NCBI GenBank assembly: GCA_046563655.1
Contig: CM102289.1
Coordinates: 2,170,001-2,234,000 of the forward strand
Direction of reading: 5' to 3'
From: Yuukianura sp. NJ FZ-2021
Lineage: Eukaryota
DNA length: 64,000 nucleotides
A program made the translations under genes and the position numbers. The notes under the pieces were generated by a model. It made no database searches, had not been told where the DNA came from, and saw nothing but the letters and a program-made list of their open reading frames with translations. Positions 2,746 through 60,703 of this stretch are shown in pieces. The first letter of the stretch is position 1; every line of letters begins with the position of its first letter.

Positions 2746-2906
2746 TCTGAACACTAGCCCTGGACAAATCTGTAAAACTGGTAATGTGTTTTCCGTACAT
2801 GAGTTTCATAATTTCGAGCTCAACGGTACCGTTGCTGTTCAATCCGACCTGTGCTACGGTACATCGGCATTGAATCTTGATGTAGGAAAAAAGGCTTGGA
2901 TGAGAT

Positions 2907-24511: not shown

Positions 24512-24559
24512 GTTTCTTCAGTCCTCCCCGAATTTGGTAAGGGTATTGTGTCTTTGAAA

Positions 24560-38511: not shown

Positions 38512-38860
38512 ATCAATTCATACTTATGGGAGAATGAGCGTTGTTGACCAAAACAGATTCAAATGCTATTAATTTTATAAATTTTGCTTAGTGAAAACAA
38601 ATGACTTTTGTGTTGCTGCCAAAGAAGTAAATCTTACACTGAACAATTTTACATAAAGCCAGCATCTTTTGGCGGAATACCAATATTGACACGACAATTC
38701 CCACAAGAAACAGAAGAAAATTGGTTTAGCATTTTTTAGTAAGCCCCAAGGCGATTACTTTTCCATTCCGCGCTGAAACTCAATTTCTTAATTTTGAAAT
38801 GTAATTTTTCATACTTATTGGAGTATGAACGGTTGATGACCAAAGCAGATTAAAGTGCGA

Positions 38861-41434
38861 TTAAGTTTTTAAATTTGGGTTGGTGAGGCGAATGACTTTT
38901 GTGTTGCTGCTACAGGAGTAAGTCCCATACTGAAAGATTTTTCTAAATGCCAGCCTCTTCTTGCAAAATACCAACCTTGGCATGGCAATTCCCACCAACA
39001 TTTCCCAATTTCGCTTAATTACTCCAGTGCTGCTGTTGCAGAAGTAAGTTTTATACTGAAGGATTCTCCCAACTGTCAATCCCTTGCCGGAAAGCAGCTC
39101 CTTGACTAATACAAATACGGACACGGCAATTCCAATAAGCAACAAAAGAAAAATGGTTTGACATTTTTGAGTAAGCCCCAAGGGGATTACTTTAGCCATT
39201 TCTCGCTGAAACTCAATTTCATCATTTTCAAATGTTAGTTTTCCATGGTAAATTCTTAGTGTTTCCCAGTAGTGCAGAAATCCACCGGTAGAGAGCGCAT
39301 CTACATTGGGCTTGATGTAGACATTATCATAGTCTTCTTCCAGTAGAGATATCAAATACTGTTTACTTCCTAAGTTAAATGCTTCCATTTCCTTTTTCTT
39401 TGTGTTTCCATAGTAAACAGCTTTACCAGATCCGTTCTTCATTGAATTTTTGAAAATAAACATGTCTTCCGTTGTTATAGCGTAAACTGTTTTGTCACAT
39501 TCCGCAATGTCGGCAGGGATAAAGTCGTTTGGATGCGTTCTACTCAACGCTGTCATGTATTGTGCCCATCCCTTAAATGAATCTTTTATTACTTCTGAAG
39601 TAGAGTAGTTCAAAGTCTTCGGATCGGAACAATCGTAATTGCCTTTTGGCAGTCTCATTTGACCTTTGACCTCAATATACATCCTGCCAAGTTCTTCGAT
39701 GTTGCCAATTGGTAGATGACTTCTGTCAAAAATTGACTCATTCATGGCCTTCGTAAGTTCAAAAGCCAGCTTAAACGTCAGATCTTGCTGCTGAATTATA
39801 TTCCAGTTGCAAATTAGGTTGTACGCGACAAAGGATGGCGCTTTGAATTTGGAAAGAATTGAAAAATTTGCACTGATCACATCGTCAAAGGTTTCAAGTC
39901 CTTTCCACGGAGGAGTCAATGACAGTTCGGCGGTAAGGAATCCTTTATAGGTATTCGACAACAGTAGACTCAGAAAAATTAGTGGAGTACCAATACAATA
40001 GTAGTGACCAGAATTGATCATTTTTTCTGAAATTTTTGGTGAAATTTCAAGCAACGTTGAAAAAATTATGAGCCATGGAGTATCATTGGCCTTTAGGCTC
40101 CATATGACCATCCAAGTGAAGACATAAACTGAAGTAATCGTAAGGGCAATAACTCCCCACACAGTGGCATCGAAACTTTTAATGTACATTTTATACCACT
40201 CTTCAGACTTGAATCTTCCGTCACAAGTGATAAAGTTATAGTCGTTTCTATAAGTACTTGGTAGTATTGTAATTGACTGAGGAAACATCGGTTTTATTGG
40301 GTAAAGTGAAACCGAGTTGCTTGGATTTGAGTTCATTAGGAATCGTGGATATTCATGCACAGTGTAATCCCGATGTAGTACAGTTACTGTCTCAGCCAAA
40401 ATTTTATCAGCTTTTGGTGTAAGTAACGCAAACGGCTCGATGCAAGAGAAATTTCCTTGTACGATTGTATCAGCTTTGAAATCGGATGCAATTGTGTATG
40501 CATAAGCAGTGTTGTATTTCGATGTAGACAGGAATTTTATGAGTAAGTATGCAAAGTGATAGTTTGCAAATTGAAGTTCGGCGGGATTCAGTAAGACAAA
40601 TGGTGATGGTCCTGATGTTACACAATGGCGTGCAATTCCAGGTTCATTGTATGATACCAGCGCGAATATTTTTGTGTTGTTGATGAAGTAGTTTCTAATT
40701 TTTTCTAGCCAAATATTATGAATCGACTGTATGTCGATGTGTGCTATTTCTTTAAAAACGGTAAACTGTTTTCCGTACATGAGTTTCATAATTTCGAGTT
40801 CCACGGTACCATGTTGATTCAAACCGACTTGAATCACGGTACATCGACATTCGATTTTCAACTGGTGAAACACTACAGAATGAGAAATATTTTGTTCAGC
40901 AATTCCGACCACAAAACTATTTTGCGTCTTGAACAAGCGATTGTACCACATCAAACCAATGTCTCTTTGCTTCAACACACGGGACCTATCTTCGAAGTCC
41001 AAACTATTCAAATGTTCATACCGTTTAAAATATTGAATGAATTTCAGGCCCATTTCCATGGTCTGACTTTCCCGGTTGTCTATTCCACAGAAAATGAAAG
41101 CGAGGCATTTAAATTTGAGTTTCAGGGTTTGATTTACATCCAACTTTGAAAATCCAGGTCCAGCTTGTTTTGAATTTGAAGTTAACACTAGTGGAAAATC
41201 TAGAGAAGCATTGACTTGACAAATTCCATTGCGGTCACTTCTTGCAGCATTTAGGACGACGAACTCTGTCCAACAGTCACTGAAAAATTTCAAAATTTGG
41301 ATTTGAGCTTGGTGAGAGGTTGCTGCAAATGTAAATTTCAAAGAACTAATGAGTACAAACATAATTGCACCAGAAATAAATCTATATTGATTCACAAATT
41401 GGATTTGATTTTTCGACTCCATATTGCTTAACAT
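38861..41434 (-). CDS. Divergent ionotropic-receptor-like protein, intronless
   Basis: 857-aa ORF with the same motifs; its C-tail has an internally duplicated ~40-aa segment (…QYKTYFCNSST / …QYGTYSCSSNT). Confidence 0.75.
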   Translation of the reverse strand: MLSNMESKNQIQFVNQYRFISGAIMFVLISSLKFTFAATSHQAQIQILKFFSDCWTEFVVLNAARSDRNGICQVNASLDFPLVLTSNSKQAGPGFSKLDVNQTLKLKFKCLAFIFCGIDNRESQTMEMGLKFIQYFKRYEHLNSLDFEDRSRVLKQRDIGLMWYNRLFKTQNSFVVGIAEQNISHSVVFHQLKIECRCTVIQVGLNQHGTVELEIMKLMYGKQFTVFKEIAHIDIQSIHNIWLEKIRNYFINNTKIFALVSYNEPGIARHCVTSGPSPFVLLNPAELQFANYHFAYLLIKFLSTSKYNTAYAYTIASDFKADTIVQGNFSCIEPFALLTPKADKILAETVTVLHRDYTVHEYPRFLMNSNPSNSVSLYPIKPMFPQSITILPSTYRNDYNFITCDGRFKSEEWYKMYIKSFDATVWGVIALTITSVYVFTWMVIWSLKANDTPWLIIFSTLLEISPKISEKMINSGHYYCIGTPLIFLSLLLSNTYKGFLTAELSLTPPWKGLETFDDVISANFSILSKFKAPSFVAYNLICNWNIIQQQDLTFKLAFELTKAMNESIFDRSHLPIGNIEELGRMYIEVKGQMRLPKGNYDCSDPKTLNYSTSEVIKDSFKGWAQYMTALSRTHPNDFIPADIAECDKTVYAITTEDMFIFKNSMKNGSGKAVYYGNTKKKEMEAFNLGSKQYLISLLEEDYDNVYIKPNVDALSTGGFLHYWETLRIYHGKLTFENDEIEFQREMAKVIPLGLTQKCQTIFLLLLIGIAVSVFVLVKELLSGKGLTVGRILQYKTYFCNSSTGVIKRNWEMLVGIAMPRLVFCKKRLAFRKIFQYGTYSCSSNTKVIRLTNPNLKT

Positions 41435-42305
41435 GGTTTTCTGTTTTGGTCAGATTGAGTGAAGCTATTTATGAAAAGGAATGTTAGAACTGAGGCAAAA
41501 CTATACATTTCATTATCTAAAATTTTCTTGCATGACTTGTAGTAGCAAAATATTGCATGAATCATTCACTACGCTTACAACACCTACAAAGCATTTCTTT
41601 TCTATAAAACACTAAATGAAAAAACTTGCAGACAGTTTTACACAATTAGTTCTTAAATGCAAATGTCATAAATTCTAATTTACACAAACTTGGCGTGATA
41701 TCGTGCAAAGCAATGCTGAAGGAGACTATAAATTTTTTTAGAGACTCCGGTTTCGTAGTCCGTGTATGTTTTGGTTTTGGTTGCCAATAACAACTTGATA
41801 TATAAAAAGATATTTTTTATTTTGCATTTTCCTTAGCAGGGCTTTAAGGTATTATACTTTAACAATAATTAATTGAATTTAAAATTATAACTTTCAGTGC
41901 TAATTTTTGTATAGTACGCGCTGGTTTGTCTTTTTTTTTTTTGACATATTTCTTGTCCATTTTCTTCTGCTTCTGTTTGATTTCCAAATGTGGTTAAAAA
42001 TTGTTAAAATCGTAGTTGCTTCTGGGCCATTTAAGAACGTTATATACGAAAAAAATATAAACGTTAAGGCGTAGACTGAATCTGTATTCCTGAATACAGT
42101 ACACTTGTTTGCTCTAAGCAACTATAACGAGTATAGGATTACATACAAAATTAGATAAGAACGAAAGTAGCGTACCGGTTTCTATAACACAGTTCAGTGC
42201 TCCATAGGGCAGTGCCAATGTAGTAGAACCTTAAAAAGTTTGCAACTTTATCCCAAATCTTCACTTCAACTCAAATCTATGGTTCATGTAGAGTTGTAGC
42301 GTCTT

Positions 42306-43861
42306 TTAGTACATTTCCGTCGGAAGTTCTAAAAGCAGCGGTGGGTCTACGCATGTCTTTTTGTTTTTATGCAAAAATTTATCTTCTGGACAAGAGCATA
42401 CAAACTCCATGAGAGATTTGTCAAAATCACATTTGTCGGAACACCCTCCATTATTCCGAATGCATGTATTTGGCAAACCTGTAAACAACAAAGACTTTAA
42501 TTGATTGAACCTTGCTTTTTAAAGCTTACAACTAAGATGCCGAACCTATGTTAAGCTTACGATCGACTCCCACAGGACCAAAAAGTGTGAAATTACCAAT
42601 TTCTGTCCAATTGGATACAACGGTCTTAATACTTTCATAATTCGAATTCCCACTATTTATCCAACTAATTCGTAATGTAATTTTGTTTCCTTTTCTAAAA
42701 AAAAAAATAAAGTATTCCGTTTTAAATCTGCAGATTTACCATTAAATTTTGACATTTGTAACAGAGAATCGTATTGAACAAATATACCTGATCTTATAGA
42801 AGCTTGCAAATGCGACATCTACGTCTTCCAGTGCCTCGAGTTGTCGCTTCACGTCAGTTACTAAATTTGTAGTCATATTTTTGGTTTCGTTTTTGGATTT
42901 TGTGATCCTTTCCAAACCATTTTTGCTGTTAGGGTTACGGAGGTTAAAAACTATTTCTGCTGCGTCTGAAACTACAGTAACAAAAAAATTTAGAAACAAA
43001 GTCATTACAATTTCTTAAGAAACTTAAAAATTGGTAGACATTTTCAAATAAAACTTTTGTTTATTACCATAATCGTTCAATAATTTTTTGGACTTCTCCG
43101 TAGCATTCGGTGGAACTAGAAACGGAGTCACAGACACTTCAATGTTAGTCGCTTTAGTTGTATTGGATAAGTGTTGCTCATTTGGAATTTCAAGTCGTTT
43201 TTGCTGTAAGTTAGGAATGGGTGGTATATCAGTTTCAGAAAATGATTCCGCTTCCGTGGTATTCTCCACGTCTAGATTAGGTGCGATGATGTAATCTGCA
43301 TGCCTTTCTCCAGTTACGTCCATCATTTTCTGACTCTCAGCATTTCCATTCTCGCCATTTTCTGAAACTTCAATTTCAATTGACGATTTTCAATTTTGAC
43401 ATTTTTCATACCAAACTTTACATTAGGGCTATGTAAAGTTTGGGAAATTCATACAACTTATAACTACTACGAACCTGTCAGTAAGACGGCACCGATAATA
43501 ATTGCTAAAATTAATAATCCGCCTAACACAAAGTAAAGATGTTTCTTCAAATTTCGAGACCTTCGTCGCTTGTTCATCGTCACAAACATATTCCTTCTGT
43601 GAATGCACAGAAAAAGATATAACAAACATTTAAAAATTTTAAACTTTAAATTTTTGTAACCCTAAAATAAAGTAGTTACCCAAAACATCGAGTCTTTTGA
43701 CTGTCAAGTGTGAAGCAATGTGGAGCTGTTTCGTGCGGTCCGCAGTCTTTTTGTGATTCATCAGAAATCGTATGAATTACGTGCGTATCTTGAACAAAAT
43801 CTGGACTTGACTCGGCAACTTCCGGTGATGGCTGGGCTTGTTTTCTGCACACCGCTTCCAT
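42306..43861 (-). CDS. Extracellular protein with Cys-rich region, mucin-like linker, SEA-like region and EGF-like domain (possibly decayed)
   Basis: Exon CIRNNGGCSDKCDFDKSLMEFVCSCPEDKFLHKNKKTC is a clear EGF-like domain, and upstream open exons have GT-AG ends. The 5' and 3' limits are uncertain. Confidence 0.55.
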
Positions 43862-44304
43862 TTGGAAAGTGAGTTTAAAATAATAAAACTTATTAGTTTA
43901 CAGTATATCAATTTTTTTTTCATAAAAGTTTCTGAGTCAAGGTTATCTACTATCCGAAACTTTCCCTCTCTCTCCTGAACTTTTCTCCAATTTTTAAAAA
44001 ACACTAAAAATCAAAACTCGTCCTTTTATTCTACTTATTCTAAAAGTGTCAGCGGTCGACTTGGCACTAAAAAACCACAGGCGGTCATTTTGGAACTATT
44101 TTTTTCTGCAGTGAATTTTCGTGTACTTATCAAGTGCTCTAGAAGCACAAGCAATAGCGGAGCTCAATTTTTAATAATTGAGGATTGTAATTTCGATAAC
44201 TCCAGAAAAAAATGAGCACAATAGAACAACACTGAACTTCCGGAAACAACGCAACCAAAACTACTAGGATGAGGAGGACTGTGGTATAATTGTGTCTATC
44301 GGGT

Positions 44305-45185
44305 TGTAAGGCCGGCTAAACACTACCACTAAACAGTATCCCAAATGACTTTTTAGGGTTTTAGGACTTTAGGATTTTAGGGATTTAGGCTTTTAGGACT
44401 TTAGGGTTTTTTGTTTGACCCCAGAACCTTGACCTCTGACCTAAAACAAGAATGAATGAGAGCAACTTCCGAGACGTCCTTCCGCTAAGAGAGTGTATTT
44501 TTGACTGATGATAAACTGTACAGAAGAGAGTGACCTGACTGACTGACTGCTTACTGTTAACTGCTTCTTAAACTTAACTGCACACGGTTTTTATAGAGAA
44601 AGGGGGAGGAGTCGGAAGAAGCAAGATCTCACCACCCAACTTGATGTTGGGGGGTGACATCTTACTCTTTCCTATCCCTCAGCTGCTAAATGAAAAGACT
44701 TACCCTAGTGTGTATAACTAAGGGGAGGGCTGACAAGGGGGAAGACCGTATCTTAAGTATCCTATAGGGAGCAATGGTATACAGGGGGAATCCAACTTAT
44801 CCTATACTGCTTATAGCTAGGAGAGAACTTATACCTAGAAGAATCAACTTAGTCTATACTCTGTTAACTAACTACGGGCACGTCCATAAGGGGAGGGTAG
44901 ACGATCACTGACTGAATTTAGGATTCCGTCTTAGGTATTTCGGAATTAGGAGTTTAGGAATTTAGTATTTTAGGGTTTTCGGATTTTAGTGTTTTAGGGT
45001 TTTCCGTTTTAGGATTTTAGGATTTTCTGTTTTTAGGATTTTAGGATTTTCTGTTTTAGGATTTTAGGATTTTCTGTTTTAGGATTTTAGGGTTTTAGGA
45101 TTTTAGGGTTTTAGGATTTTCGGAATTTCGGAATTTAGGGTTTTCGGAATTTCTGAAAATCAAAAAAGAGGACATCGTCGCTACA
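44305..45185 (-). mobile_element. Probable solo LTR with TTTTAGG-rich arrays
   Basis: TGTA...TACA termini, TATAAAA on the minus strand near 44590, and degenerate TTTTAGG(G/A) arrays near both ends. No clean TSD. Confidence 0.55.
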
Positions 45186-46092
45186 AGGATCATGCAATCC
45201 CAATTTTTCTAGCGTTAGACAGATTGTGAGCTTTGACGTTCATTGTCTCAAGAGATTCCAATAAAAAAAAGTTCAGGACTATCTCACCGCAACTTCCGAG
45301 GAACTTTGCAAGTTCGCTTTTTGTGTAGTATTTATTTTCGCGAAGCTTTCCTGTCGCAAAAGTCTGCTCTTTTTAACTAGTTTGAATTTTTACAAGAAAA
45401 TTTTCCGATACGGTTTACCATCTTTACTACATTTTTTTGCAAGGAGCTATTGTAAAATGCAGAGTTGTCCATGTAACCTCAAAAAAAAAAATACAAGACA
45501 ATCCAACAATCCTTGTTACCTAACCTAATTAACATGACATGAATTACGGAGATCCAAATTCCCAACTTATCATAAAACTTTAAAACAGAATCAAAATGTT
45601 AAAATAATGTGAAATTTACGTTAAGTTCAATTTTAGGCTTAAAGCTACTTGAATTTGTCAGTGTGAAAACTTAATTTACTACAACTGAACAGTATTCAAC
45701 GACGTGAACCAAAACTTTACATGAACAGCGAGTCAGTGTTGCGTTGGCGTTTTTTCAACTGCCCATTTTCTAAGTCATTTTCGCTGAAACTATGAATACC
45801 AAAAGAATCCGGCTACCCATAATTCCCAGTTTTAACTAAATTATTTAGTGTTTCCTTGTTTTTCGTTGACGTTGGGCCTTGTGTGAACTGTTTCCTGGAG
45901 ACTGTCAGCGTCGGACGTCTGGTTACGTTAGGTATTAGGAGTTATTGGAATTGGACGCAGGAAGTGAGAGAATGAAAGTAATAAATCCCGAAACTATTCA
46001 GCTGTCTCCGAAACATGGATAAATTGGTTGTCACTATTGAATTTATGTATTACACGCATATGACAGACAACATTTGCATTGTTATTTCCCAG

Positions 46093-46100
46093 TATAAATA
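46093..46100 (+). promoter_or_regulatory. TATA box of GH81 copy 1
   Basis: TATAAATA, conserved with its flanks upstream of copy 2 (51837-51844). Confidence 0.6.
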
Positions 46101-46249
46101 CTTTGGAAATGGATCCATGTTGTATCAAAGTCTTCATGTCAACTTTCACCTCAACGTCAATCTAAACCTTCATTTTAATAATTTGTGTTAAAAACTTTTA
46201 CCTAAACTTGAAATTTATATTTAATTAAACCGCCAACTTAAAGGTTACC

Positions 46250-49200
46250 ATGTCACCTTTGTTGGTGCTTTTCTGCCTTCCAGCCTTATTGCTCCAATCG
46301 ACCAGTGGGCATCGTAAGACTTAGCATTTTGAATAAATATATTTATTTTTATTTAACTAAATGTAACTAAATTTATTTTAATTATTGTGAAATATTATAT
46401 TATAAAATTATTTAACTAATTGCTAAATGAAACTGTTAATGTTATATTTTCCGTTAAGGTGGACCGAGTCAAATACCCATATCGGTAACACCACCAAACT
46501 TTCCTGGAGGTTTTGCAGCTGTAAATGCCACTCCTGGGCCATTTCTGAGGGACTTCCGACCTCCACTGCCAACTGATTCTTGTAAAAAATATTTTTTAAA
46601 ATATCGAGAACATAATGACTTTAACGTAAAAATTAAAAATTGACCTGGAAATTTTATATTCAGGGTGGGCTGGCTTTACTGTTGCGGACTATCAAAGAAA
46701 GTAAGATTAAAATTTAATTTGTGTTTGTAAAATATTGAAATTATTGTTACATTTTGTATTTTTAATAGCGTTGCTGCTGGACCATTTCCATTTCAATCGA
46801 AAACTGCAGACGATGGATTTGAATTCGGAATTGCAACGGCTAGAGTTTCAGACGGAAGTAAACTTACAGTCCCAACAAAACTGGACTTGTCCATTAGGAT
46901 TGCAAATCTCCCAGTAGCTATTGACAACCGAAAAGCTTTAACCTGGGACACACAGACTCTGAGTCTGCGCTACATGGCAACAGATGGATCTACAATGGAC
47001 ACGACACTTGTCCCGGGCTCTCCCTACATGACTTTCACGTTCAACACAGCCAAGCCTATCATTAGGAGCATCAGCGGAAACATTACATTCCAGTGGATCA
47101 CTCTAGGTAAAAAAATTATTTAACGAACTCAAACTTTTAATATAAAGTATCTCAGCTAAATTTTCATGTCGAGTTAACATACCTAATGTTTTTACTTCGT
47201 TTATACAGGGCAAAAGGGACGTTTGACTTGCGGAGGTGGAACGTATATTCTGTACGCGCCCAGTGGACTACTGAACCAGTTCAATATATATGCAGACACA
47301 TTAAACTTCACTACGACGATCACCGGTTCAATTCGGTTGGCCAAAGTAGTCGATCCGGCTCAGGAAACAATTCTTGATACTTACTCTTCAACATATGCAA
47401 CTGGACTCACAATGGCCTATGACGCACAAGGTGACATTGGAACAACCACTTGGACGTGGGATGTTGTTGGCGATCCAACAAAACTTCTCATCATGTGCTG
47501 GCCCCATCATAGGTAATACACAATACAAACATTGCCAAACACTATAGTGGAATTCAACTATCTCCATGTCGATTTCGACTTGAATTTCAATTTGTAACGA
47601 CACGTAGATAGTTGAATTTCAATGTGCAAATTTTTAACCAATTTTTACCATTTTAGAAAAGTTCTCGTTTCTCCAACATATGTTAATATCGAATACATGA
47701 ACGTTAAGGGCCGTATGAAGGGTGTCGTAGGAAATGAGTGGATCCAGAGATACAATTTACCGCCAATCAGATGGAATGCGACACTTCCACCGCACCAGTC
47801 CTGTGTCTCTCAGCTACTGAAAACACTTCAATACGAAGTTAGCAATCTTAAGGCACATATTCCTAACGAATTTTACCGTTGGGGAGGTCGAACTGCTGCT
47901 GGAGCAACGTTGGCTATTATTGCAGACACGTTGGGCCGAACAGACCTGAGAGATAGGGTATTAAACATCACGAAACAAGCCATTGAGTTTTGGTTTACAC
48001 CGGGCAACAAACCGGCGGCTTGCTATGAAACAAAATGGGGAGGAGTAGGGGATGCAAACGACGTCAGTCAGGTAAGGAACGAAAAAAATTCATTTTAAAA
48101 TATAATTTAATCACAAATTTTATTATATACTACCTTAATAATTGCTTTACATTACACTTTATCTAACATTCTCGTACATATTTTTTAGCTACATTACAAC
48201 GACCATCATTACCTCTTTGGCTACTTCTTATATATGTCCGCTATTGTTGGAAAATATGACTCTGTTTGGCTTGCTCAACATCTTGATCTTCTAAACCAGT
48301 AAGTAACGCCAACATTAAGTCTACGATTTTAGACAACATTTCAACTTAGTTTGGTTGTGTATTGGTTTTACTATAAAAAATTTGTTTTAACATTTTTTTT
48401 TAAATTTTTTTGAAACAGCATGGCACGAGACATTGGCAATCCATGTCCAGAGGACCCGCATTACACTGTTTTCCGACACATTGACTTTTTTACTGGACAT
48501 TCTTGGGCCAGTGGACTTCAGGGTGGAGCTGGAAACCGAAATCAAGAAAGCAGTTCAGAAGCCGTCAATGCTTACTACGGACTCCTGCTGTTTGCTGATG
48601 TTACTGGAAATACTGAACTGGTCAAATGGGCTCGTCTTCTTTTAGCATTTGAAATTATGGGAACCCAAACCTACTGGCATTTGTACCCGAATGCTACAAA
48701 TCCAGATGAACCATATCCAGAAAGAAATTTCCGAGACTTGATCACTGTTGCAAACATTTACCCAGATGGAGCCAGTCGATTTTTGCACTGGGGAACACAC
48801 AAGAAAATTCAAGTGGCGGCAATTCAAATTACACCGTTGACTCCTATGGGTGAACTGACTTATGACAAAGATTGGGCCGAACAAGTTTTGCCATTTTGCG
48901 CTAGTGAACTTAATGACCCTTCTGAATCGGATGAGTGGAAAACATGTAAGTAAATTTTGATCAAAATTTGTCAACTCAAAGAATTTTTATACAATTCATT
49001 TTTGTTTTACCGAGTTTTTTAAATTTGTTTAGACGTTTACGGCGCTTATGCTAACTTCAACCCGCAACTGGCTTACAACTACTCGTCTGAATTGTCTAGC
49101 TGGGGTTCCGGCAACACCGCTTCGAATCAACTCTACTTTGTAGCTACCAAGCCTTCACCTAATGGCGGCAACATTTGTACCAACATTCTACATACACCAG

Positions 49201-49964
49201 AAGGAATTTTTACCATCCAAGATGCAACCACCGGCAAGTACGTGGGAATTTCAAACGGAAAATTGAGGGCCTATCTTGGGTCAAATCTCCTAGCAACCAA
49301 GTTCGAATTGGTATATATTCCTGGCGGAGGCGCAATTAAGTCGACCATAAACAATCTGTACGTGAACGCTGACCCAGCTGGAGTATCCGGGTTATCACCG
49401 AACCGACAAGTTCCACTGGCGCATGAAACGTTCCGTTGGACGATGGTTACCGGTGGATACCAATTGAAATCAATGGCCAGCAGCCTTATGGTCTACTCGG
49501 GTCCGAATGGAGAACTTTGGAACAATGCAACTACAGCTAGAACGTACCGCCTCACAGCAACAACACTAACTAAACCAACTGTACCGGCACAAGGAAAGTT
49601 ACAGAGCGTCCAATCCACTAAATTCGTTGTAGCGACAGCCCAAAATACAACACTTCAAGCTATTGGAGCAACTAGCAGTGCTGGAACAACATTTCGGTTT
49701 GAGCAAGTGGCTGATACAGATTCATATTCAATCTGGAGTACTGTTACTGGATTGGCGGTTACCGCGGATCCAAATGGAAATACTCCTTTGAGAGCAACCA
49801 AACCTGTTGCCAGCTCGTGGGAACGCTTCAGAATTGTTGCAGACAATGGGCAATTCATTTTCATTAGTGAGTCATCTGGACTAGCGGTAACAGTCAGATC
49901 AGATGGAATACTTTTGAACAATGATTCTACAACGGGCAATGCAGCACGTTGGAACATCGTTTGA
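46250..49964 (+). CDS. Secreted GH81 endo-beta-1,3-glucanase with C-terminal fascin-like beta-trefoil repeats, copy 1 (9 exons)
   Basis: Signal MSPLLVLFCLPALLLQSTSG; motifs [60 protein letters not shown]; tail repeats with HETF/WERF. Exons 46250-46313, 46459-46581, 46664-46700, 46769-47106, 47209-47512, 47657-48071, 48189-48298, 48419-48945, 49033-49964. AATAAA near 50010. Confidence 0.92.
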
Positions 49965-50335
49965 TTTTGGTTATTCCAAATTTCAAATTTGAAAATTTTA
50001 AAAACTTGAAATAAAACAAAACAAAAAGGTTAAAAGACTTTGGCTATTTACTATTGCCTTGAGTTTGCATATTTCTTCGGATGTTGAGGTGAACTGCAAT
50101 GTAAGAGGAATACTGCGGCATTCAAATTTTCTTTCCAAAAAACCAACTAAATCTTAAAAGAATTTGAAATGCGATATATGTAGGAAATGTATACAAAATT
50201 GAAATTAGGTATGAACAATTTAGACATTGAACCCTATTCTTGGAAGTTTACATAAAAAACAGTCAGAGCAAATATCGTCTCAGAATTCAAAAATTAAAGT
50301 AGAGATGTAGCATGCAGGCAACTAATTTTTCTTGG

Positions 50336-51090
50336 CGACCATTGGCAAATTTCTAAACTGCAGCAAAATAAAAAATAACAATCATTTTTTGGACCTGTCT
50401 TAGTTTTTGAGCAAAGGATAAAACCGATAATTGTCTTTCAAACGTTCCTTTCACCCCTAATTTTTTAACTAAACTAGTTTTTTTTTCATCTGGAAGGGCA
50501 TAAGCTTTGTAGATCGGCTGAAGTCTGAAGTAGTGACGTAAACCTCAAAAAACTCAAAAGTTTAAAATTTTTGAAATTCAAGCATTCTGGTGGCTTCAAA
50601 AACGGAGAAAGCTTATTATTTATTACTTATTACTTATTTTGACTGACAAAATACTATGAATTCTATATGTTCAAACCAGACTCTCGAATCACAAACGCTT
50701 TTGGCTTTTGTAAAAATACACAAAATAAGTATTTTTCTTTAGATGTTTTTTTAACTTATAAACCCACTTTAGTTGAACGTATGTTAAAAAAAAGTAAAAG
50801 CAGAAATTCATGTAATCGAAATCGAATGCAAGCTTACAATCGTTTTGTCGTTGCGAGAACTTTGTTTTTGTTAAACTTTACCGAAATAAGTTGTGGCAAC
50901 AATTCAAATTATTGTTCACACTAAATCTGAATTTGAATCTAAGGTCACAAACATTTTTATTCTGAGATAACAGTAATATTGACGTTTGTATTTGAATTTA
51001 AGCATTGATTGCATCAAATACAAAGTTTTACCAAATGCCAACGCCTTGCAAGCCACTAAAAATGTCATCGCATTCCAATAGCAACCGAGT
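50336..51090 (-). pseudogene. Mosaic of decayed receptor-array remnants
   Basis: 50336-50600 resembles 766-990, 50640-50720 resembles 35895-35970, and 50915-51085 resembles 36030-36200. Confidence 0.6.
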
Positions 51091-51836
51091 GAAATGCTAT
51101 AGGAGAACTAAATCTGATTTAACACAATCAAAATTCACAAAACCAACTGTATTCATTTAACCTGTGCAGAATTAAAACAGTTTGAAAGCGACATTGTAAA
51201 CAACGCTGTAGTCAAAATAGTTAAAAGTTTTTGAATATAGTTTTAATTAAAATTTAAATATTTTTTTTTAATTTAGTGTATCACAGGCATGGCACAAAGG
51301 GCTTAGGCTGAGTTTCTACATTTCAGTTCCATCAGTTAATCTCTATTGTTGAAATTACTAAATTCAAAGTACTAATTACTACTACAGAGCAGCTAAACGA
51401 CGAATATGACTGTAATTCTTCACTATTTTCATTATACGAAACTTGACAGAAATTGTAAAAATGACTTTCGGTTTTGCGCTGATGTATTTTCTATTTAATT
51501 TTGTGAGACGGAACTAAATAGACGCGTCAAAACTCTGCATTCGACTAATTTCCACGTTAAAACCACAATGTTTCCTGGATTTTGTTGACATTTGACCTTC
51601 CTTGCGTTAGTCATTGAGCGTAGTTAACATTAACCTTTGCTTGCGTTAGGCTTTAAAGGCTACAGGTGTTATACGCAGAAAACTAAAACGATGGCACTAA
51701 ATTATGAAACTGCTATTCAACTGTCACCGGAACAGCAAGGTAACTGAATAAAACATACATTGTTAATTGATCAATTGTCAGTCATAGTTCCATTTATTAA
51801 TCCAAGCATGGTGACATTCACATTGCTAATTTTGGC

Positions 51837-51844
51837 TATAAATA
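51837..51844 (+). promoter_or_regulatory. TATA box of GH81 copy 2
   Basis: TATAAATA at the position homologous to copy 1. Confidence 0.6.
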
Positions 51845-52007
51845 CTGTGCGCATTGATCCATGTAATATCCAAGTCTTCATTTATACTTTCAACGTTAAT
51901 CTAAACCTTCACTTAAATATTAATTAAACCGTTTAACTAAATATTAATTTGATTAGATTAATTAGATTTGATATTAATCTAATTGAAAGTTTCATCCAAA
52001 GGTCATC

Positions 52008-55000
52008 ATGTCACAATGGCTGATGATCTTCTGCTTTCCAGCACTCGTGATGCAATGTACCCACGGGCACCGTAAGACATTTTGTTCTGCATTAGTAGTT
52101 TAGGTTAACTTACTTGTACTTAATTTTTAATTAAATTAAATTAATTTACATAATATTTTAATTAATTTTAACTGAAACTGCGATATATTTGCATTTAGGT
52201 GGTCCAAGTCAAATACCCATATCGGTCACACCCCCTAACTTTCCTGGAGGTTTCTCTTCTGTAAATGCCACTGCCATTCCAGGACCATTTCTGAGGGACT
52301 TTCAACCTCCTCTGCCAACTGATTCTTGTAAAAAAATTATTTTTAAACATTTACATGTTAACTTTAAGTTTTAACGGTAAGTTAACTGTATTTTTTGATG
52401 TTCAGGGTGGGCTGGATTTACTGTCTTCGATAATCAAAGAAAGTGAGTTTCCAAATTCACTGATTGATTATTGCTTTGATTTTGAAATTATTGTTATACT
52501 GCGTGTTATTAATAGTGTTGCTGCTGGACCATTTCCATTTCAATCGAAAACAGCGAACGATGGATTTGAATTTGGAATTGGAACTGCCCGAAGCTCGGAT
52601 GGAAGTGAACTTACAGTTCCAACAAAACTGGATTTGTCCATTAGGATTGCAAATCTCCCTGTAGCACTTGACAACCGAAAGGCTACTGCGTGGGACACGC
52701 AGACTCTGAGTCTGCGCTACATGGCAAGTGATGGGTCTACAATGGACACGACACTGGTCCCGGGTTCTCCCTACATGACATTCAGATTCACCAACGCCAA
52801 GCCCATCATTAGAAGCATCAGCGGAAACATAGGATTCCAGTGGATCACTCAGGGTAACCAAAAAATTATTCTACTAACTAAAACTTCTAAACTAACTTCA
52901 AGCTAAATTTGCATATTAAGTTAATATAGTTAATGGTTGAACTTTATGTTTACAGGGCAGAAGGGACGTTTGACTTGCGGCGGTGGAACGTATGTGCTTT
53001 ACGTGACCAGTGGACCACTGAACCAGTTCAACGTAAATACTAACACACTAACGTTCACTACTACGTTCACCGGTTCAATTCGATTGGCCAAAGTAGTTGA
53101 TCCGCAACAAGAGACAATCCTTGATACTTACGCTTCAACGTATGCAACTGGACTGACAATGGCCTATGACGCACAAGGTGACATTGGAACAACTACTTGG
53201 ACGTGGGATGTTGTTGGAGATCCAACAAAACTTCTCATCATGTGCTGGCCTCATCATAGGTAATACACAATACAATCATTAGCAATCAATCACTATGACT
53301 TATACAAACTTAAATTTCAATGTAATGGCATGCAGAAAGTAGAATTCCAATGTTCAAATTTTTACCAAACTTTTAATATTTTAGAAAAGTTCTCGTTTCT
53401 CCAACATACGTTAACATTGAATACTTGAACGTAAAGGGCCGTATGAAGGGTGTTGTAGGGAATCAGTGGATCCAGAAATTCAATTTGCCGCCAATCAGAT
53501 GGAATGCGACTCTTCCACCACACCAGTCATGCGTCTCTCAGCTAATGAAAACGCTTGAGTTTGAAGTCACATATCGCGTTAACGTACGCATTCCAGGTGA
53601 AGTTTACCGCTGGGGAAGTAGAACTGCTGCTGGAGCAACATTAGCTATTATTGCAGATACGTTAGGTCGAACAGACCTGAGAGACAAGGTGTTGAGCATC
53701 ACCAAACAAGCTATGGAATATTTTTTTACACCGGGCAAACCAATAGCGTTGGCTTATGAAACAAAATGGGGAGGAGTATCAGATCCTAAAGATGACAGCT
53801 TCGTAAGAATCCAAAAATTGAATTTCAATTTTTATTTATAATAATATTTTTACTAATTTACTAATTTTTTTTAAACATGTATATTTAAATAATTTTTAAA
53901 GAAACATTACAACGACCATCATTTCCTCTATGGCTACTTCTTGCACATTGCCGCCATTATTGCGAAATACGACCCCGCTTGGCTGTCTCAACATCTTGAT
54001 TTTCTTAACCAGTAAGTAACACAATTTTAAATTTTAACTTGTATACATAAATTTTTTTTAGGTATTTACGTTTAGTTGTATCAGATTAACTACCAATTAC
54101 ATTCAATTAAAATCCGTCAAGATTTTATTTATTAAATTAGCATTTATTAAATTTGATTGAAACAGTATTGCGCGAGACATTGGCAATCCATGTCCAGAGG
54201 ACAAGCATTACACCGTTTTCCGACACATTGACTTTTTTACTGGACATTCTTGGGCCAGTGGACTTCAGGGTGGAGCTGGAAACCGAAATCAAGAAAGCAG
54301 TTCTGAAGCCATCAATGCTTACTACGGACTCCTTCTGTTTGCTGATGTCAGTGGAAACACTGAATTGGTCAAATGGGCTCGTCTACTTTTAGCATTTGAA
54401 ATCATAGGAGCCCAAACCTACTGGCACTTGTACCCGAAAGCTGCAAATCCAGATGAACCTTATCCAGAACAAAATTTCCGAGACTTGGTGACTGTTGCCA
54501 ACATTTACCCAGATGGAGCCAGTCGATTTCTGCACTGGGGAACACACAAGAAAATTCAAGTGGCGGCAATTCAAATTGCACCGTTGACTCCCATGGGTGA
54601 ACTGACTTATGACAAGCCTTGGGCCGAACAAGTTGTACCATTTTGCTCTAATGAACTTAACAACGCTTCTGAATCCGATGAGTGGAAAACATGTAAGTTT
54701 GATCAAAATTTGTCAAATCACGGAAATTTGTTGCCATTTTATTTATATTTAGCAACGTTGCTATTTTTTATAGACGTTTACGCCGCTTATGCCAAATACA
54801 ATCCTCAACTGGCTTACAAATACTCGTCTGAATTGAAACTTTGGGGTGATGGTAACTCCGCTTCGAATCAACTCTACTTTATATCTACCAAACCATCGCC
54901 TAATGGAGCCAACATTTGTACCAACATTCTGCACACACCAGAAGGAATTTTTACCATCCAAGATGTAACTAGCGGCAAGTATGTTGGAATTTCAAACGGA

Positions 55001-55699
55001 AAATTGACAGCCAATGTCGTGTCGAATCTCATAGCAACCAAGTTCCAGTTTTCCTATATTCCTAACGGCGGCGTAATGAAATCTACTACAAATGGACTGT
55101 ATGTAGGTGCTAACCCAGAAGGTACAAACGGATTAGTTCCGAATAAACAACTTGCAGATTTGTGGGAAACGTTTCGTTGGACTGCTGTTACCGGTGGATA
55201 CCAATTGAAAGCAATGGCAAACATGGGTATGGTGTACACTGCATCTGGTGGAGAACTATCAAATACAGCAACTACGCCTGGAAAGTACCGTTTGACGGCT
55301 ACAACCTTTACAAAACTACCGGCACAAGGAAAGTTACAAAGCGTTCAATCAAATATGTTTGTGGTAGCAACAACCTCAAATTTACCACTGATGGCTGTTG
55401 GATTAATGGCTCAAGCTGGAACGACATTTCGATTTCAGCAAGTAGGTGACACAGAGTCTTATTCAATTTGGAATACCGCAACTGGATTGGCTGTATCGGG
55501 AGATCCATCGGGCACGGTCACTTTAAAAGCAAACAAACCTGTTGCCTATGGATGGGAACGTTTCCGGGCAGTGTCGGTCAATGGCCAGTATATTTTGGTT
55601 AGTGAAGCAAGTGGGTTGGCTGTGAATGTGAGACCAGATGGAACACTTTTAAACAACGATGCAACCGCGGGAAATGTAGCACGCTGGAGAATCGTTTAA
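52008..55699 (+). CDS. Secreted GH81 endo-beta-1,3-glucanase with fascin-like repeats, copy 2 (9 exons)
   Basis: Signal [20 protein letters not shown]; same intron positions as copy 1; [10 protein letters not shown] and [12 protein letters not shown] intact; AATAAA at 55741. Confidence 0.92.
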
Positions 55700-56524
55700 C
55701 CTGGTTTTTAAATTTGGAGTTCTAAATTTTAAAACCTTGAAATAAAAATGTTTAGAAATATTGAGAAAATTTTTGGTTCTCGTTACTTTCTTTTCGTATA
55801 CGCAACAAGTCTTCTTTTTGCAAACTGATTTATTACCTTTAGCTTAGCTTTTTGATGGCAAGTTTTTTTATTTGAATTTCGAGCAATATGTAAGAGTTAA
55901 TTCAAACACGAAATTGCTTGGTTAGGTTGCGTTCTAAACCTTGTTCTAGAGTAGATAGAAGTTAAAATTGCTATACGAAATGGCGGGACAATTTGAACGT
56001 AACTTTGTAAAGTGGCATGGCAGTCGGGTGATGATAATTAAAGTACTGAAACCAGTAATGAGTGTTGTGATTTACAGAATCACAAAGTAGTCAACACTGC
56101 CAGCAACAGGTTGAACAGAATCTGATTCAAAAGTAAAGTATTCGCTGCACTCTCATCTCATGTTGATGTTATGCACTTCTGCTGTAACTGAGTTCCCATC
56201 CCAAGGTCAAATGATGTTTCCTAATACTCATATGATAAGTAAAGTTCCAAAATCCAAAGTGTTAGACTTTTTGCTCATGAAGTGACCACGATACTATTTA
56301 GTGCTATAGTCACTTGTGACTAGTCTAACATACGGATGAATTTTGACAAGTCATTTTCTATTTTAAATGACACTCACAGATAAGAGTACAATAAAACGGC
56401 AATGTACGAAACTTAACAGTTTGTTGGAACAGCAAAATCTTAGAAAACTCTGCATTTTCGAGAATTTGTGAATCATTTGTTTATTCTGCTTTCTACTTTG
56501 AATTTTAGTTTCCAAAAAGAACAA

Positions 56525-58526
56525 ATGGAGTCGGCGAAACAATGGGTACATGTTCAATTCAAATTAAATCGCTCAATTCATTTGTTTCTCAAAATTACGA
56601 CAAAAAATTAAAGAAAAAAAAAATGGTGATTTTTTTTTACAGATCGGCGTTCTTTTCACAATGTCACTTTACGTCCTCCCTCTACTAGTATCGACACCAC
56701 TTGTCCTAATTCTCTTGTTCAGTCCATTATGGTTTCTACCGGTGGCGTATTTCACATGGGCTTTTTATTTTGACAAAAATGCTTCAAAAACTGGAGGGCG
56801 AAGGTAAGCCACAATTTCTTTTCACAGGATTATGAAAAATTTAGTAGCAGGTCATTAGCACCAAAACTCTACGCGCGAAGTAGCCAAGTTGGCAACAATG
56901 CAACTAGGTGTCATTGGGCTTCAAGGTTAGGTTTAAGAAAGGTTTGGGTTATGTTTTTATGTGTATGGTTTAAGTTTATCTATCAGGTGGTGTTAGGTTT
57001 TTGAAGGGTGTGGATTGGGTATCATTGATGATACACTATGGGGCGGTTGAGCCTTAGATAAGGATAGGCGGACGGAATCGACTAATTATCATCCGGAGGC
57101 CCATCGAATATTAATGATGATACAGCTCCCAGTGTTGCCAAGTTGCTGAATTCGCCCTTATTGTTTTCGCACTAATGACTTGGAAAGAAAATTTTTCTAA
57201 GAACATTTTACTTTTAGCGAAAACAGTTTATTTTATTTCTATTTTAAAGGAGTAACTACTTTCGTCAACTCCCGGTGTTCAAATGGTACTGCGAGTACTT
57301 TCCGATCAAACTAGTTAAAACGGCTGAATTGGATCCATCAAAAAATTACATCATGGGCTATCATCCTCATGGCCAAATTAGTCTCGGTAAACTTCAGGGC
57401 TCATTTTTTCGATTAAAAAATCCATTAAATTCGTTTGTTTTTTCGGTAGGGTGCCTAGGAAATTTTGGTGGAGATGGAAATGAAATCAGCAACGTGTTCA
57501 AAGGACTGACAACAACTGTACTCACAATGGACTTTTTCTTTTGGTTTCCAATTGTCAGAGAAATGGCACTTGCTGGTGGTACGTTGTTGGAAATTTTATG
57601 TAATGTAAGAGTAACTTTGCAAATGGTAATGTATAGTCAGAATTATGAATTGAATTAAACGTGCAGAATATTTATGAAATTGTAACTTATAAAAATTTTG
57701 GTAAGGCTTGTGTAATGTGTCCAAGGAAAGCATTAACTACTTGATGGCAAAAGAATCCGGAGGAAATGCTGCAATACTGATTCCAGGAGGCGCAAGAGAA
57801 GGTTTGTGGCAAGTGTAAATTTGAGTGTCAAAATTTGAAAAAAAGTGAATTGAATTTTAAAATTTTTGGCTTGGAATAACATATTTTCATGTGTAAATCA
57901 TTATTTCAGTAATGTATGCTGAACCTGGAACTGACGTCATATACTTAAAAGACAGAAAAGGCTTTATCAAAGTCGCCATTCAAAACGGGTGAGTTATAAA
58001 AATTTTAATTTGAATTTCTCCTTAATTGCGATAATTCCTGATTGCAAAATTTTCAAGTTCTTCTCAATTTCTGATAATGAAAATTTCTTACAGCGCCTCA
58101 CTAGTGCCAATTTATAGCTTTGGAGAAACAGATCTCTACCGACAGCCAAGCAAATGGATTGTTAATATCCAAAAGTGGATATGGGATACGCTCCAATTTT
58201 TTCCGTTTATTTTGCTCGGAAGATGGAATTCCATCATGCCTCAAAAAGTACCGATCACTTCAGTTGGTGAGTCAAAATTAGTCATCATGAATTATGATTA
58301 GTAACAACTATTTAAGTTATATTTTTTATATTTTAAATATTAATAATATTATACTAACTTTTGATTTGTTTCAGTTGGGGCTCCAATTCCAGTGGAAAAG
58401 ACTCCTAATCCAACAAACGAGGAAGTTGATGCTGTTCATCAGAAATATATGGATGCACTTAAAATATTGTACTACGAACATCGTGAAAAGTACGGAAATC
58501 CAAAGTCCGAACTCATTATTACTTAA
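56525..58526 (+). CDS. DGAT2/MOGAT-family acyltransferase
   Basis: Motifs GGRR, YFPIKLVKTAELDPSKNYIMGYHPHG, IPGGARE, RKGFIKVA, ASLVPIYSFGETDLY and VGAPIPV, in about 8 exons. The first exon (MESAKQW) is tentative. Confidence 0.93.
56851..57179. mobile_element. Decayed MITE-like element in a DGAT2 intron
   Basis: Inverted ends gtcattag / ctaatgac and an inner ttggcaac / gttgccaa pair. Confidence 0.4.
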
Positions 58527-59029
58527 AATTTGTGCTAAAATTAGTTATAGATTCATTTTTAAAAAACGTGATTCATTTATTTTGATGATTTCAAACTGAG
58601 ATTCTTTTAATACTGTTCTGCTTTGTGCGTACTTTTAATTTAAAAATTTGAAAGTTTGCGCCGAATAATTTTATGCCGGCAACTACATACATGCTTAGTT
58701 TCATTGTTTTTTCATTTGAAAAGCAAAGTAAACATTTCCTTGGAAATTTAACCATTTTTTCCTTATTTTGTTCGATTCTTTCATCAATTTAGCGTTTGGA
58801 ATGACCACAAATACCGAGCAAATCCTGTTTCGGTTTTCAAAATAGAATATAAATGGTAACGGTTCGATGGAAAAACTTGTGTATAAGTTGGTGTATAAGT
58901 TGTGTATAAGTCAAATCACAAGAAGCACATTCATAAAACTGGTAAAATTAAATAGTTAGGATATAACCGTTTATTAGACTCCGTAAAACAAAATTTAAGA
59001 ATCAGATAATTTTTAGTTTTGGGCTAGAA

Positions 59030-59251
59030 ATGCGGATACTCTTGTGTTTTTTACTCTTGGTTGCCATGGCTGCCGTTTTGTTTGATTTCGCCGACGGTGG
59101 CAGCAGTATGAGCAAAACTGGGCGAATTGCATGGGCCGGCGCATCGAAAGGACGCAGTCGCGTTGGCCAAGACATTTTAAGGAATGCACAAGCCTCAAGG
59201 TCTACTACTACACGCAGACCATTTCCACGACCAAAAGCAAAAAGTGGCTGA
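59030..59251 (+). CDS. Small secreted cationic peptide (putative antimicrobial peptide)
   Basis: Signal peptide ending in ADG, then a 50-aa mature part with 12 K/R and 1 D, an RRPFPRP motif and a C-terminal Gly. AG lies just before the ATG and AATAAA near 59324. Confidence 0.62.
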   Translation: MRILLCFLLLVAMAAVLFDFADGGSSMSKTGRIAWAGASKGRSRVGQDILRNAQASRSTTTRRPFPRPKAKSG

Positions 59252-59854
59252 AATTTTAAAAACCTCGCGATTAAAAAAATTCTTGTTCAAATTCCTGCTC
59301 TTAATAATTCTCAAAATAATTGAAATAAAATTTGTAAAACTTTCACCTCTCGTCTAAAGCTAAATTCCTGAAAGCCGCTTTTTGTGTCGAATCGCATTGT
59401 GTGAAAAAATATAACAGCGTCGTGATTACAACAAGTTTTAAGCTCATGCTATTTCTATTTGAAACTGAGTTGTTAATACTTCAAATTTTATGGGTTCCAC
59501 AGGAAGTGAAATTTAATTTGTTTCTTGTTTTCCTGAACAAAAAAAAATTAAAACTAGTTTGATTGCTTTTCTAAAAATACAACTAAAGTCGTCTGCTTAA
59601 TTAGTTTCTGACCAAATACTTTTTTGAAGTTTGGTTCGCTAGATTTTGTTTATGGTTGGCTGAAAGTGACACGCCTGTGGAGATGGGCGTGTTTTGTGAC
59701 AGAAACGACCGTGTCGGAATCACAGCTATCCACTTTCACCTTTTGATTAAAACCAACCCAGGTCGAATTAACCAATTCCAGTCTAATTTTGGTCCTTGAA
59801 ACAACAAAACCATAAGTTAGGGTAAGCCAAGTCGAGCTAAACCATGCAACCTTT

Positions 59855-60703
59855 AATAAACCGGTTGTAAACCGCGCATAACGAAATAGCTCAAGCCAAT
59901 AGATGGTTTTCCCCCAGGCGGGAAATGTGGGGGGTGGGTACTCACTTTTTCTCCAGTACTCTTCCCCGTTTCCCCTACATTCCCCACCATTTTCCACACT
60001 CACACGCCTCCCCCCGGGGGAGTGCGGGTGGGTTCCCCCACTTTTTCGCTCCGCACCCCAGGGAGCGCGGGGGTGTGTTCCGCTACTTTTCCGCCCCCCC
60101 CCCGGGGGAGTGGGGTAAGTTCCCCCACTTTTCCGCCCCTCCCCGGGGGAGTGGGGGGTGCCCCCCACTTTTCCGCCCCCCCGGGGGAGTGGGGGTTCCC
60201 CCACTTTTAAGCCCCCCGGGGGAGTGGGGGGGGGTTCCCCCCACTTTTTCGACCCCCCCCCCCCCCGGGGAGTGGGGGTGGGTTCCCCCCACTTATCCAC
60301 CCCCAAAGGGGAAGTGGGGTGAGTTCCCGCATTCCACCACTCCCCAGTGTCAACTCGGCTAGCTTAGGGAATGCCATGGTCTTAGCATTGGATAGGCGGC
60401 TTCCCCTATCCAATGCACTGCGTGTTGGGAATGTTGACCTTTGATCCCGGTTTTGACCCCCTTGGAGGGGTCACAGACCCATGGTTCATATACCAAAGTT
60501 GCTCCCCTCACTGAGAGGAACAACTTTTGTTAGGGTCATTTTCCCGGTTTTATATTAAAAAGGTCAATGACCTTGACCTTTGACCCGGTAAAAGGTCACT
60601 GACCCGGGAAAAAAGATAAACTTGAACTGGCGGCCGGCATGGGATGTCGATTGGTGAAAACCCGGATCAAATCGGTCCAGTAGTTTCTGAGATCCATGAG
60701 CTG

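Follow-up and report, generated by a model that had tools for sequence, protein, structure and literature searches.

The DNA considered here, a stretch of 64,000 nucleotides (nt) of Yuukianura sp. NJ FZ-2021 (contig CM102289.1, positions 2,170,001 to 2,234,000; "the window" in the following), carries two tandem genes for beta-1,3-glucanases of family GH81. We think it probable that an ancestor of this arthropod-like animal captured a complete GH81 gene from a fungus and that its present-day products are secreted glucanases, most likely in dietary use. The trees nest the two genes among fungal sequences, and physically they are integrated between host genes. This is best accounted for by horizontal transfer and makes contamination unlikely. 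That the genes are foreign to animals is, as judged from the phylogeny, well supported, and so is a donor lineage that was fungal and specifically Mucoromycota-like. Their introns were most probably inherited from the donor with the gene.

Two tandem GH81 genes

We built the exon structures by hand from the plus-strand stop-to-stop frames at 46.2-55.7 kb, which fall into two parallel series. Copy 1 (46250-49964, plus strand) has nine exons that encode 949 amino acids (aa) in an open spliced frame interrupted by eight GT..AG introns. Its exons 1-5 lie at 46250-46313, 46459-46581, 46664-46700 (a micro-exon of 37 nt), 46769-47106 and 47209-47512, and exons 6-9 at 47657-48071, 48189-48298, 48419-48945 and 49033-49964, stop codon included. 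Copy 2 (52008-55699, plus strand; nine exons, 950 aa) is built in the same way, with exons 1-5 at 52008-52071, 52199-52327, 52406-52442, 52516-52853 and 52956-53259, and exons 6-9 at 53385-53802, 53902-54011, 54166-54692 and 54774-55699, again including the stop codon. All 16 introns of the two copies are of the GT..AG type and measure 68-154 nt, and each of the eight occupies the identical codon and phase in both genes. An earlier note on this DNA, made from the letters alone, had described two tandem GH81 genes with eight introns at shared positions, and the intact nine-exon models bear this out.

A single blastn alignment of 4032 columns and 77.5% identity joins the units 46070-50016 and 51814-55747 (both plus strand). 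As it extends over the introns and the short flanks, the duplicated unit includes them: it reaches from roughly 180 nt before the start codon, through every exon and intron, to roughly 50 nt past the stop codon. The proteins are identical in 753 of 952 aligned columns (79%), the introns in 547 of 796 aligned bases (68.7%). Between the copies, the ratio of nonsynonymous to synonymous divergence (dN/dS) is 0.265, with dN 0.13 and dS 0.49 over the whole gene. The C-terminal part (dN 0.242, dS 0.808) evolves faster than the GH81 core (dN 0.093, dS 0.396). The sequence comparison indicates that the duplication is old and that both copies are under purifying selection.

Two further features that the note had named can be recognised at the ends of the genes. 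Residues 3-16 have a mean Kyte-Doolittle value of 2.23 and 1.46 in the two copies; this hydrophobic character of both N-termini agrees with a putative signal peptide. A candidate poly(A) signal, AATAAA, follows the stop codon after 46 nt in copy 1 (50010-50015, plus strand) and after 42 nt in copy 2 (near 55741, plus strand), the background of this hexamer across the window being 0.89 per kb. The copy 1 hexamer lies within a 24-nt stretch (49993-50016) that is 95.8% identical to 55724-55747, a placement read by eye.

For protein domains, we scanned ten pieces of open reading frames (ORFs) of the two genes with Pfam. Nine matched PF03639 or PF17652, five of these above the curated cut-off, and the tenth, exon 9 of copy 1, matched beta-trefoil families only. 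The N-terminal GH81 domain PF03639 scored 38.2 and 50.4 bits on the exon 5 pieces (cut-off 25.6) and remained under the cut-off on the exon 4 pieces (16.7 and 18.4 bits). PF17652, the C-terminal catalytic domain, reached 103.4, 96.9 and 41.6 bits at the same cut-off of 25.6.

The catalytic motifs are located in exons 7 and 8 (48189-48945 in copy 1 and, as its counterpart, 53902-54692 in copy 2, both plus strand), with YNDHH in exon 7 and QESSSE in exon 8. The two exons of copy 1 align to residues 472-502 and 510-608 of 4k35_A; the structures 4k35 and 4k3a we take to be those of RmLam81A of Rhizomucor miehei. In this alignment NDHH pairs with SDHH (473-476) and QESSSE with QESVPE (552-557), so that D475, E553 and E557, reportedly the catalytic residues of RmLam81A (Zhou et al. 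2013), are matched by identical residues. NDHH and ESSSE occur in both copies, and the motifs that the earlier note had called intact are indeed so.

Over its length, copy 1 is collinear with annotated GH81 proteins. Residues 5-842 align with 8-853 of an Umbelopsis protein (P0001; 47.9% identity over 852 columns), and residues 28-949 with 22-949 of a Mycena sanguinolenta protein of 951 aa (P0002; 38.9% identity). From both Pfam domains, the catalytic triplet and the full-length collinearity we conclude, at the level of sequence, that both proteins are members of GH81. They would function as secreted endo-beta-1,3-glucanases, most likely in the digestion of fungal or algal glucan.

Phylogenetic placement among fungi

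A search with exon 8 (175 aa) returned 1060 proteins at E <= 0.001 from 1357 candidates. Organism names are attached to 37 of the best 40 of these 1060, and all 37 are fungal: Umbelopsis is at the top (59% identity), Mycena species (53-55%) and Gongronella (54%) are among the best matches, and Exidia, Auricularia and Fusarium are represented as well. Below the fungi follow green algae, euglenids, a metagenome-assembled genome of the Flavobacteriales and unnamed metagenome proteins, none exceeding 43%. Animal names are absent from the best 120 of the 1060 matches, only part of which carry names. The alien index, a check proposed in the earlier note, was approximated by the difference in ln E, which is at least about 105 (from E = 7.3e-65 and 3.4e-19) for any animal match below the listed range, a figure weakened by the unnamed matches. 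When the 512-aa frame of copy 2 was compared with a library of 1.84 billion representative proteins, 1629 matched at E <= 0.001, and the best 150 of them were all at or below 58% identity.

The phylogeny that the note had called for placed the window genes within fungal GH81. In a tree of 60 rows and 830 columns, the window pair has a support of 100 in the Shimodaira-Hasegawa-like approximate likelihood ratio test (SH-aLRT) and falls within a clade with Umbelopsis and Gongronella, likewise supported at 100, that is sister to a Dikarya clade. A second tree of 57 rows and 825 columns was obtained from the 60-row set by removal of 20 distant or redundant rows and addition of 12 metagenome models and five fragments. 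Here, the clade comprises 12 rows with a support of 100; Gongronella is the first to branch, and the window pair is part of an unresolved group with Umbelopsis, the metagenome loci L003, L001, L019, L039, L041 and L042, and the fragment P0142. The placement did not change in a tree of 28 of these 57 rows (825 columns; support 100 for eight rows and 95 for seven). Both named fungi of the clade, Umbelopsis and Gongronella, belong to the Mucoromycota. Constraining 16 fungal rows to group together apart from the window genes lowers the log-likelihood by 66.6 units, and the approximately unbiased (AU) test rejects that topology (p-AU 3.8e-5).

Intron positions and their fungal counterparts

The eight introns of the window genes lie at codon/phase 22/1, 63/1, 75/2, 188/1, 289/2, 428/0, 464/2 and 640/1. 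For the comparison with fungal homologues, another check named in the earlier note, 80 metagenome loci were retrieved with the Umbelopsis protein P0001, and 18 of them were inspected for introns. Introns 2-8, seven of the eight, were matched in codon and phase across fungal-clade loci. L039, which encodes 936 aa with two trefoils and is 57% identical to P0001 and about 50% to copy 1, shares introns 2, 3, 5, 6, 7 and 8, lacks intron 4, and has a micro-exon of 34 nt where the window genes have one of 37 nt. In the Mucoromycota clade, L019 shares introns 4 and 6, and L042 shares introns 6 and 7 and lacks intron 5. L003, whose best segment is 88% identical to P0001, shares introns 7 and 8 and lacks intron 6. 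Introns 3 and 5 are found in L028, which groups with named Agaricales. Each of these five loci lacks at least one intron of the eight-intron set. Of the seven matched introns, an Umbelopsis-like contig thus has two and an Agaricales-like contig another two; three remain that occur only in metagenome contigs assigned to the Mucoromycota clade by phylogeny alone.

Four short proteins derived from fragment ORFs (P0140, P0142, P0147 and P0149) are bounded exactly at the ends of exon 8. All four read G after 'FKS', as G|GT at a phase-1 donor predicts, and in P0140 and P0142 an S takes the place of the His of the fungal and window proteins, as predicted by AG|Y at a phase-2 acceptor. Over the compared region, P0140 hardly differs from the Umbelopsis protein. 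A different intron set, none of it shared exactly with the window genes, was seen in ten Ascomycota-like loci (L048, L052, L059, L005, L051, L045, L053, L054, L055 and L004), and L001 and L002 gave single uninterrupted matches.

Two candidate introns were set aside. An apparent match of L028 (3020-6045) to intron 4 was rejected, being of phase 1, four codons upstream of the window site and inside a lineage-specific insertion; this near-site intron may represent intron sliding or an alignment effect, and intron 4 is matched instead in L019. A predicted intron of L041 (GTCATT..GGAG) looks artefactual and was not used.

With seven of the eight introns matched in fungal-clade loci, the most parsimonious interpretation is an arrival of the gene in the form of fungal genomic DNA, introns included. 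The earlier note had listed the introns among the features of a candidate domesticated transfer. We cannot follow it in this respect: introns that came with the gene provide no evidence of long residence in the host or of domestication.

C-terminal beta-trefoils

Exon 9 of copy 1 (49033-49964, plus strand), whose counterpart in copy 2 lies at 54774-55699 (plus strand), encodes a linker followed by two tandem beta-trefoil modules. RicinB_lectin_2 passed its cut-off of 25.6 with 29.0 bits in copy 1 exon 9 and with 28.6 bits; Fascin (16.9 bits, cut-off 23.1) and DUF7910 (27.0 and 25.8 bits, cut-off 35) remained below theirs. We modelled copy 1 exon 9 with AlphaFold2 from a 16-row alignment. The mean of the predicted local distance difference test (pLDDT) was 83.1; the first roughly 50 residues are poorly modelled, and from residue 51 onwards the means of ten-residue blocks are 80-97. 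The model consists of strands throughout, and its last roughly 255 residues are predicted to fold into two beta-trefoils. A Foldseek search of the PDB gave 403 matches at E <= 0.001, with fascin as the best (E = 3.5e-13), followed by the tandem-trefoil lectins HA33, Amaranthus agglutinin and ricin B. The likeness to these proteins lies in the two-trefoil fold modelled for exon 9; identity is 11-18%, and the TM-scores of 0.3-0.5 reflect that the two domains are oriented differently. The designation "fascin-like trefoils" in the earlier note is therefore fair as a description of the predicted fold, with fascin at the top of the Foldseek list, and does not extend to Pfam Fascin, which is under its cut-off.

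The note had further proposed that the trefoils bind glucan. By analogy they may do so: a CBM56 module of a bacterial GH81 enzyme boosted activity on insoluble linear beta-1,3-glucans (PMC9609564). The combination of a GH81 core with two trefoils is itself fungal, given the end-to-end alignment with the Mycena protein P0002; the combination is likewise present end to end in L039.

Genomic setting and base composition

Animal-type genes surround the two copies, as the earlier note had stated. Just 3' of copy 2 lies a gene of the acyltransferase family DAGAT (56568-58523, plus strand) with several exons, in which PF03982 matched three ORF pieces at 57248-58523. One DAGAT exon frame retrieved 16 proteins, of which the named ones come from Ostrinia (an insect, 42%), three decapods, one annelid and two fishes; Ostrinia, Macrobrachium, Petrolisthes and Cherax provide the best named matches. 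The Pfam scan of the surroundings took in frames of 45 aa or more in the two outer thirds of the window together with 19 chosen ORFs, and covered the middle third (19.7-38.0 kb) by its large ORFs. Further matches were a Cys-loop channel with both its ligand-binding and membrane domains (16980-18150), CBM_14 (13175-13384), DUF4789 (3-203), an EGF-like domain (42309-42518) and a piece of a beta/gamma-crystallin. We take the host to be an animal, most probably a pancrustacean arthropod whose lineage has been little sampled.

On the minus strand at 26447-41449, five intact ORFs without introns (696-862 aa, 47-55% mutual identity) form a tandem array; a sixth copy, which is broken, is located at about 900-3700 (minus strand), and small fragments are found near 11900-13050. 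These ORFs form an orphan family with a hydrophobic start, and for the five large ones neither a Pfam match nor a homologue in a search of 5.8 billion proteins was found. Between the GH81 copies, the DNA at 50323-51084 is 74-81% identical to 3' ends of array ORFs and the DNA downstream of them (752-834, 962-1004, 29704-29860, 32887-32979, 35883-35954 and 35999-36193). At the protein level the resemblance is weak (tblastn to residues 793-820 of array ORF R2, E = 0.006). The "receptor-array remnants" that had been reported between the copies are thus confirmed as array remnants at the DNA level; the label "receptor" finds no backing in ORFs that have neither a Pfam match nor a homologue.

Four sequencing runs from one sample (X1-X4) contain 40-89% of the words of the stretch. 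Contigs assembled separately and compared over 41000-60000 bridge the junctions: in run X1, contig record 2 (45157-46799) leads from upstream DNA into copy 1, record 4 (49195-52546, seven differing letters) from copy 1 through the spacer into copy 2, and record 6 (54936-57064) from copy 2 into DAGAT, although runs X1-X3 may be the data from which the window itself was assembled, so that bridging tests the assembler and not the sample. Run X5, from another study and with a second organism label, contains 9% of the words, among them pieces of copy 1 and copy 2 (45961-46799, 47172-47528 and 54669-55175, with 29-61 differing letters each) and a piece on the DAGAT side (56418-56800), all about 92-94% identical. 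The bridging contigs and the host-array DNA between the copies agree with the claim of the earlier note that the setting argues against contamination.

In base composition the GH81 genes resemble the host. The GC content at third codon positions (GC3) is 0.40 and 0.39, compared with 0.36-0.39 in host ORFs and 0.48 in the fungal-clade locus L039, and intron GC is 21.5% versus 33% in L039. Domestication does find support in this host-like composition, together with the host DNA between the copies, the purifying selection and the presence under a second organism label.

Several other features of the window may be recorded here. At 42583-42979, runs X1, X2 and X5 have a variant form in common, in which 89 letters stand in place of 92 of the window, flanked by 11 differing letters on one side and 17 on the other. 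This diverged haplotype or allele is present under the second organism label too. At 44170-45437, 56850-57483 and 59386-60000, the contig word depth in all four runs is several-fold to about 50-fold that of neighbouring bins, with many joints and loose ends. These stretches, one of which lies within a DAGAT intron, are probably dispersed repeats. A GC-rich island (21970-25560; 42-47% GC versus 37% for the window) contains an ORF of 456 aa (23141-24508, plus strand) with a CCHC-like motif and no Pfam match, and a peptide of about 35 residues is encoded twice, at 21972-22202 and 25302-25559, as expected of the direct terminal repeats of a retroelement. Finally, frames at 14306-14663 (minus strand) contain five or more repeats of a peptide unit ('NHRVNLQMP' in one frame, 'PNAEPQGQP' in another), reflecting a 27-nt minisatellite.

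Discussion

According to our proposal, the donor would have been a Mucoromycota-like fungus whose DNA was taken up as genomic DNA. The transferred piece would have comprised the signal-peptide end, the GH81 core, the two C-terminal beta-trefoils and the donor's introns; after insertion between host genes it would have drifted to the base composition of the host and, later on, have been duplicated in tandem, with both copies kept under purifying selection. The host spliceosome would remove the eight introns, transcription and splicing being favoured indirectly by the open frames, the retained splice sites and the dN/dS of 0.265; the proteins would be secreted, and the GH81 core would cleave beta-1,3-glucan by means of the conserved Asp and two Glu, with the trefoils anchoring the enzyme on insoluble glucan. 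Use on dietary fungal cell walls or on other beta-1,3-glucans, such as laminarin, is the least certain step. We also think it rather more likely than otherwise that the host has processed at least seven donor introns and the 37-nt micro-exon through a duplication as old as a dS of about 0.5, the introns drifting to host composition meanwhile.

The closest known relatives of the window genes are the GH81 genes of the Mucoromycota (Umbelopsis P0001, Gongronella butleri P0003, and 4k35/4k3a), with which they share the Pfam domains, the Asp and two Glu and the clade, and, in the Umbelopsis-like L003, two introns. They differ from these by their animal genome, AT-rich introns, host-like GC3 and long branch, and by their two trefoils, as P0001 (873 aa) aligns only up to residue 842 of the 949 of copy 1. 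The same architecture is seen in fungal GH81 proteins with C-terminal Fascin/DUF7910 (Mycena sanguinolenta P0002, Sistotremastrum P0023, Auricularia P0030, Fusarium P0026 and L039); the identity of copy 1 to L039 is 49.6% and that to P0002 38.9%, and the Dikarya members are in the sister clade.

The statement of the earlier note that GH81 is not typical of animals was too strong. Mollusc genomes are given as having 0-1 GH81 genes per species, listed as expressed in the hepatopancreas (PMC7560691), annelid transcriptomes contain GH81 (PMC11083476), and a GH81 gene of the copepod-like 'E. affinis' lies among host genes and is ascribed by its authors to a recent transfer of bacterial origin (PMC12198962). 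The window genes resemble these cases in that the family occurs in invertebrates and, for 'E. affinis', in the embedding in host DNA and the reading as a transfer; the origin differs, being bacterial there and fungal-like here. Our literature search retrieved no fungal-derived GH81 in arthropods, supplementary tables, which may list one, being outside its reach. The GH45 cellulases of Phytophaga beetles (PMC6509783) offer a parallel: there, too, an arthropod obtained a secreted carbohydrate-degrading enzyme from fungi, and the gene was later duplicated. Apart from family and substrate (beta-1,3-glucan in the case of GH81), the two differ by an opposite intron history, since for a conserved intron of the beetle genes no fungal counterpart was found and the authors conclude that it was gained after transfer.

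A number of points weigh against a fungal transfer with inherited introns. In the phylogeny, the group for the AU test was chosen after the tree had been seen, though it is the one that would naturally be posed beforehand; the long stem of the window pair (0.62-0.68) can mislead placement; the SH-aLRT supports stem from quick tree searches; named GH81 sequences of molluscs, annelids and copepods are not among the rows; and the Mucoromycota clade has names for only two of its 12 rows. As to the introns, L039, L019 and L042 are metagenome contigs placed by phylogeny alone and could in principle be from other recipients of the gene, and the flanks of L039 show a C2H2 zinc finger only. For intron 1, no counterpart was found among the 18 inspected loci, L039 being unresolved there and L028 lacking an intron in the signal-peptide region. 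By themselves, shared introns would fit ancient vertical descent, too. Moreover, the TATA box described in the earlier note could not be confirmed: the 150 nt before each ATG contain no canonical TATAWA, and the TATA-like strings present there are AT-rich and lie in DNA that is itself rich in AT.

If one takes up the possibility of ancient vertical descent, GH81 and its introns would have been present in the opisthokont ancestor, kept here and lost in most other animals. The occurrence of the family in molluscs, annelids and a copepod (PMC7560691, PMC11083476 and PMC12198962) would be in line with this, as would intron positions of the kind typical of old vertical genes and the clades P0141/P0148 and P0150/P0155, which stand just outside the fungi in the trees. 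We nevertheless rate such a history as very unlikely. The window genes are nested in the Mucoromycota instead of being sister to all fungi, the AU test rejects a tree that keeps the fungi together (p-AU 3.8e-5), animal names are missing from the best 120 of 1060 matches, and no representative exceeds 58% identity among the best 150 of 1629. To an even smaller chance we would assign an artefact in which the assembler joined GH81 genes of a fungus in the sample to animal DNA. The closest relatives are fungal and the gene structure is fungal-like, to be sure, and the best-covering runs X1-X4 cannot count as fully independent, since they come from one sample and may have supplied the assembly itself. 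Against it stand the contigs bridging 45157-46799, 49195-52546 and 54936-57064, the DNA between the copies that resembles the host's orphan array, an intron GC of 21.5% and a GC3 of 0.40 that are host-like and unlike those of fungal-clade loci, a best full-length fungal match of 48% only, distant from any sampled fungus, and the GH81 and flank pieces in a run labelled as another organism.

A third possibility accepts the transfer and questions the role: the proteins might serve immunity, through beta-glucan recognition or antifungal action, or one copy might be a non-enzymatic binder. Arthropods do have beta-glucan recognition proteins, the products of both copies have the look of secreted proteins with lectin-like trefoils, and divergence is faster in the C-terminal part than in the core (dN 0.242 versus 0.093). 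We consider this unlikely; the Asp and both Glu are retained in both copies, and hence neither looks like a dead enzyme. We thus favour the capture of a complete fungal gene and a glucanase in dietary use.

Introns are commonly taken as evidence that a foreign gene has been domesticated. In the window genes the exon-intron structure is traceable to the donor lineage, and if our interpretation is correct, this would caution against taking introns alone as a sign of long residence or domestication of a foreign gene; it would also amount to a natural test of intron compatibility across kingdoms. A beta-1,3-glucanase, with the fungal and not the plant wall as its target, would join the fungal enzymes acquired by small arthropods, which bears on digestion in animals that feed on fungi and detritus.

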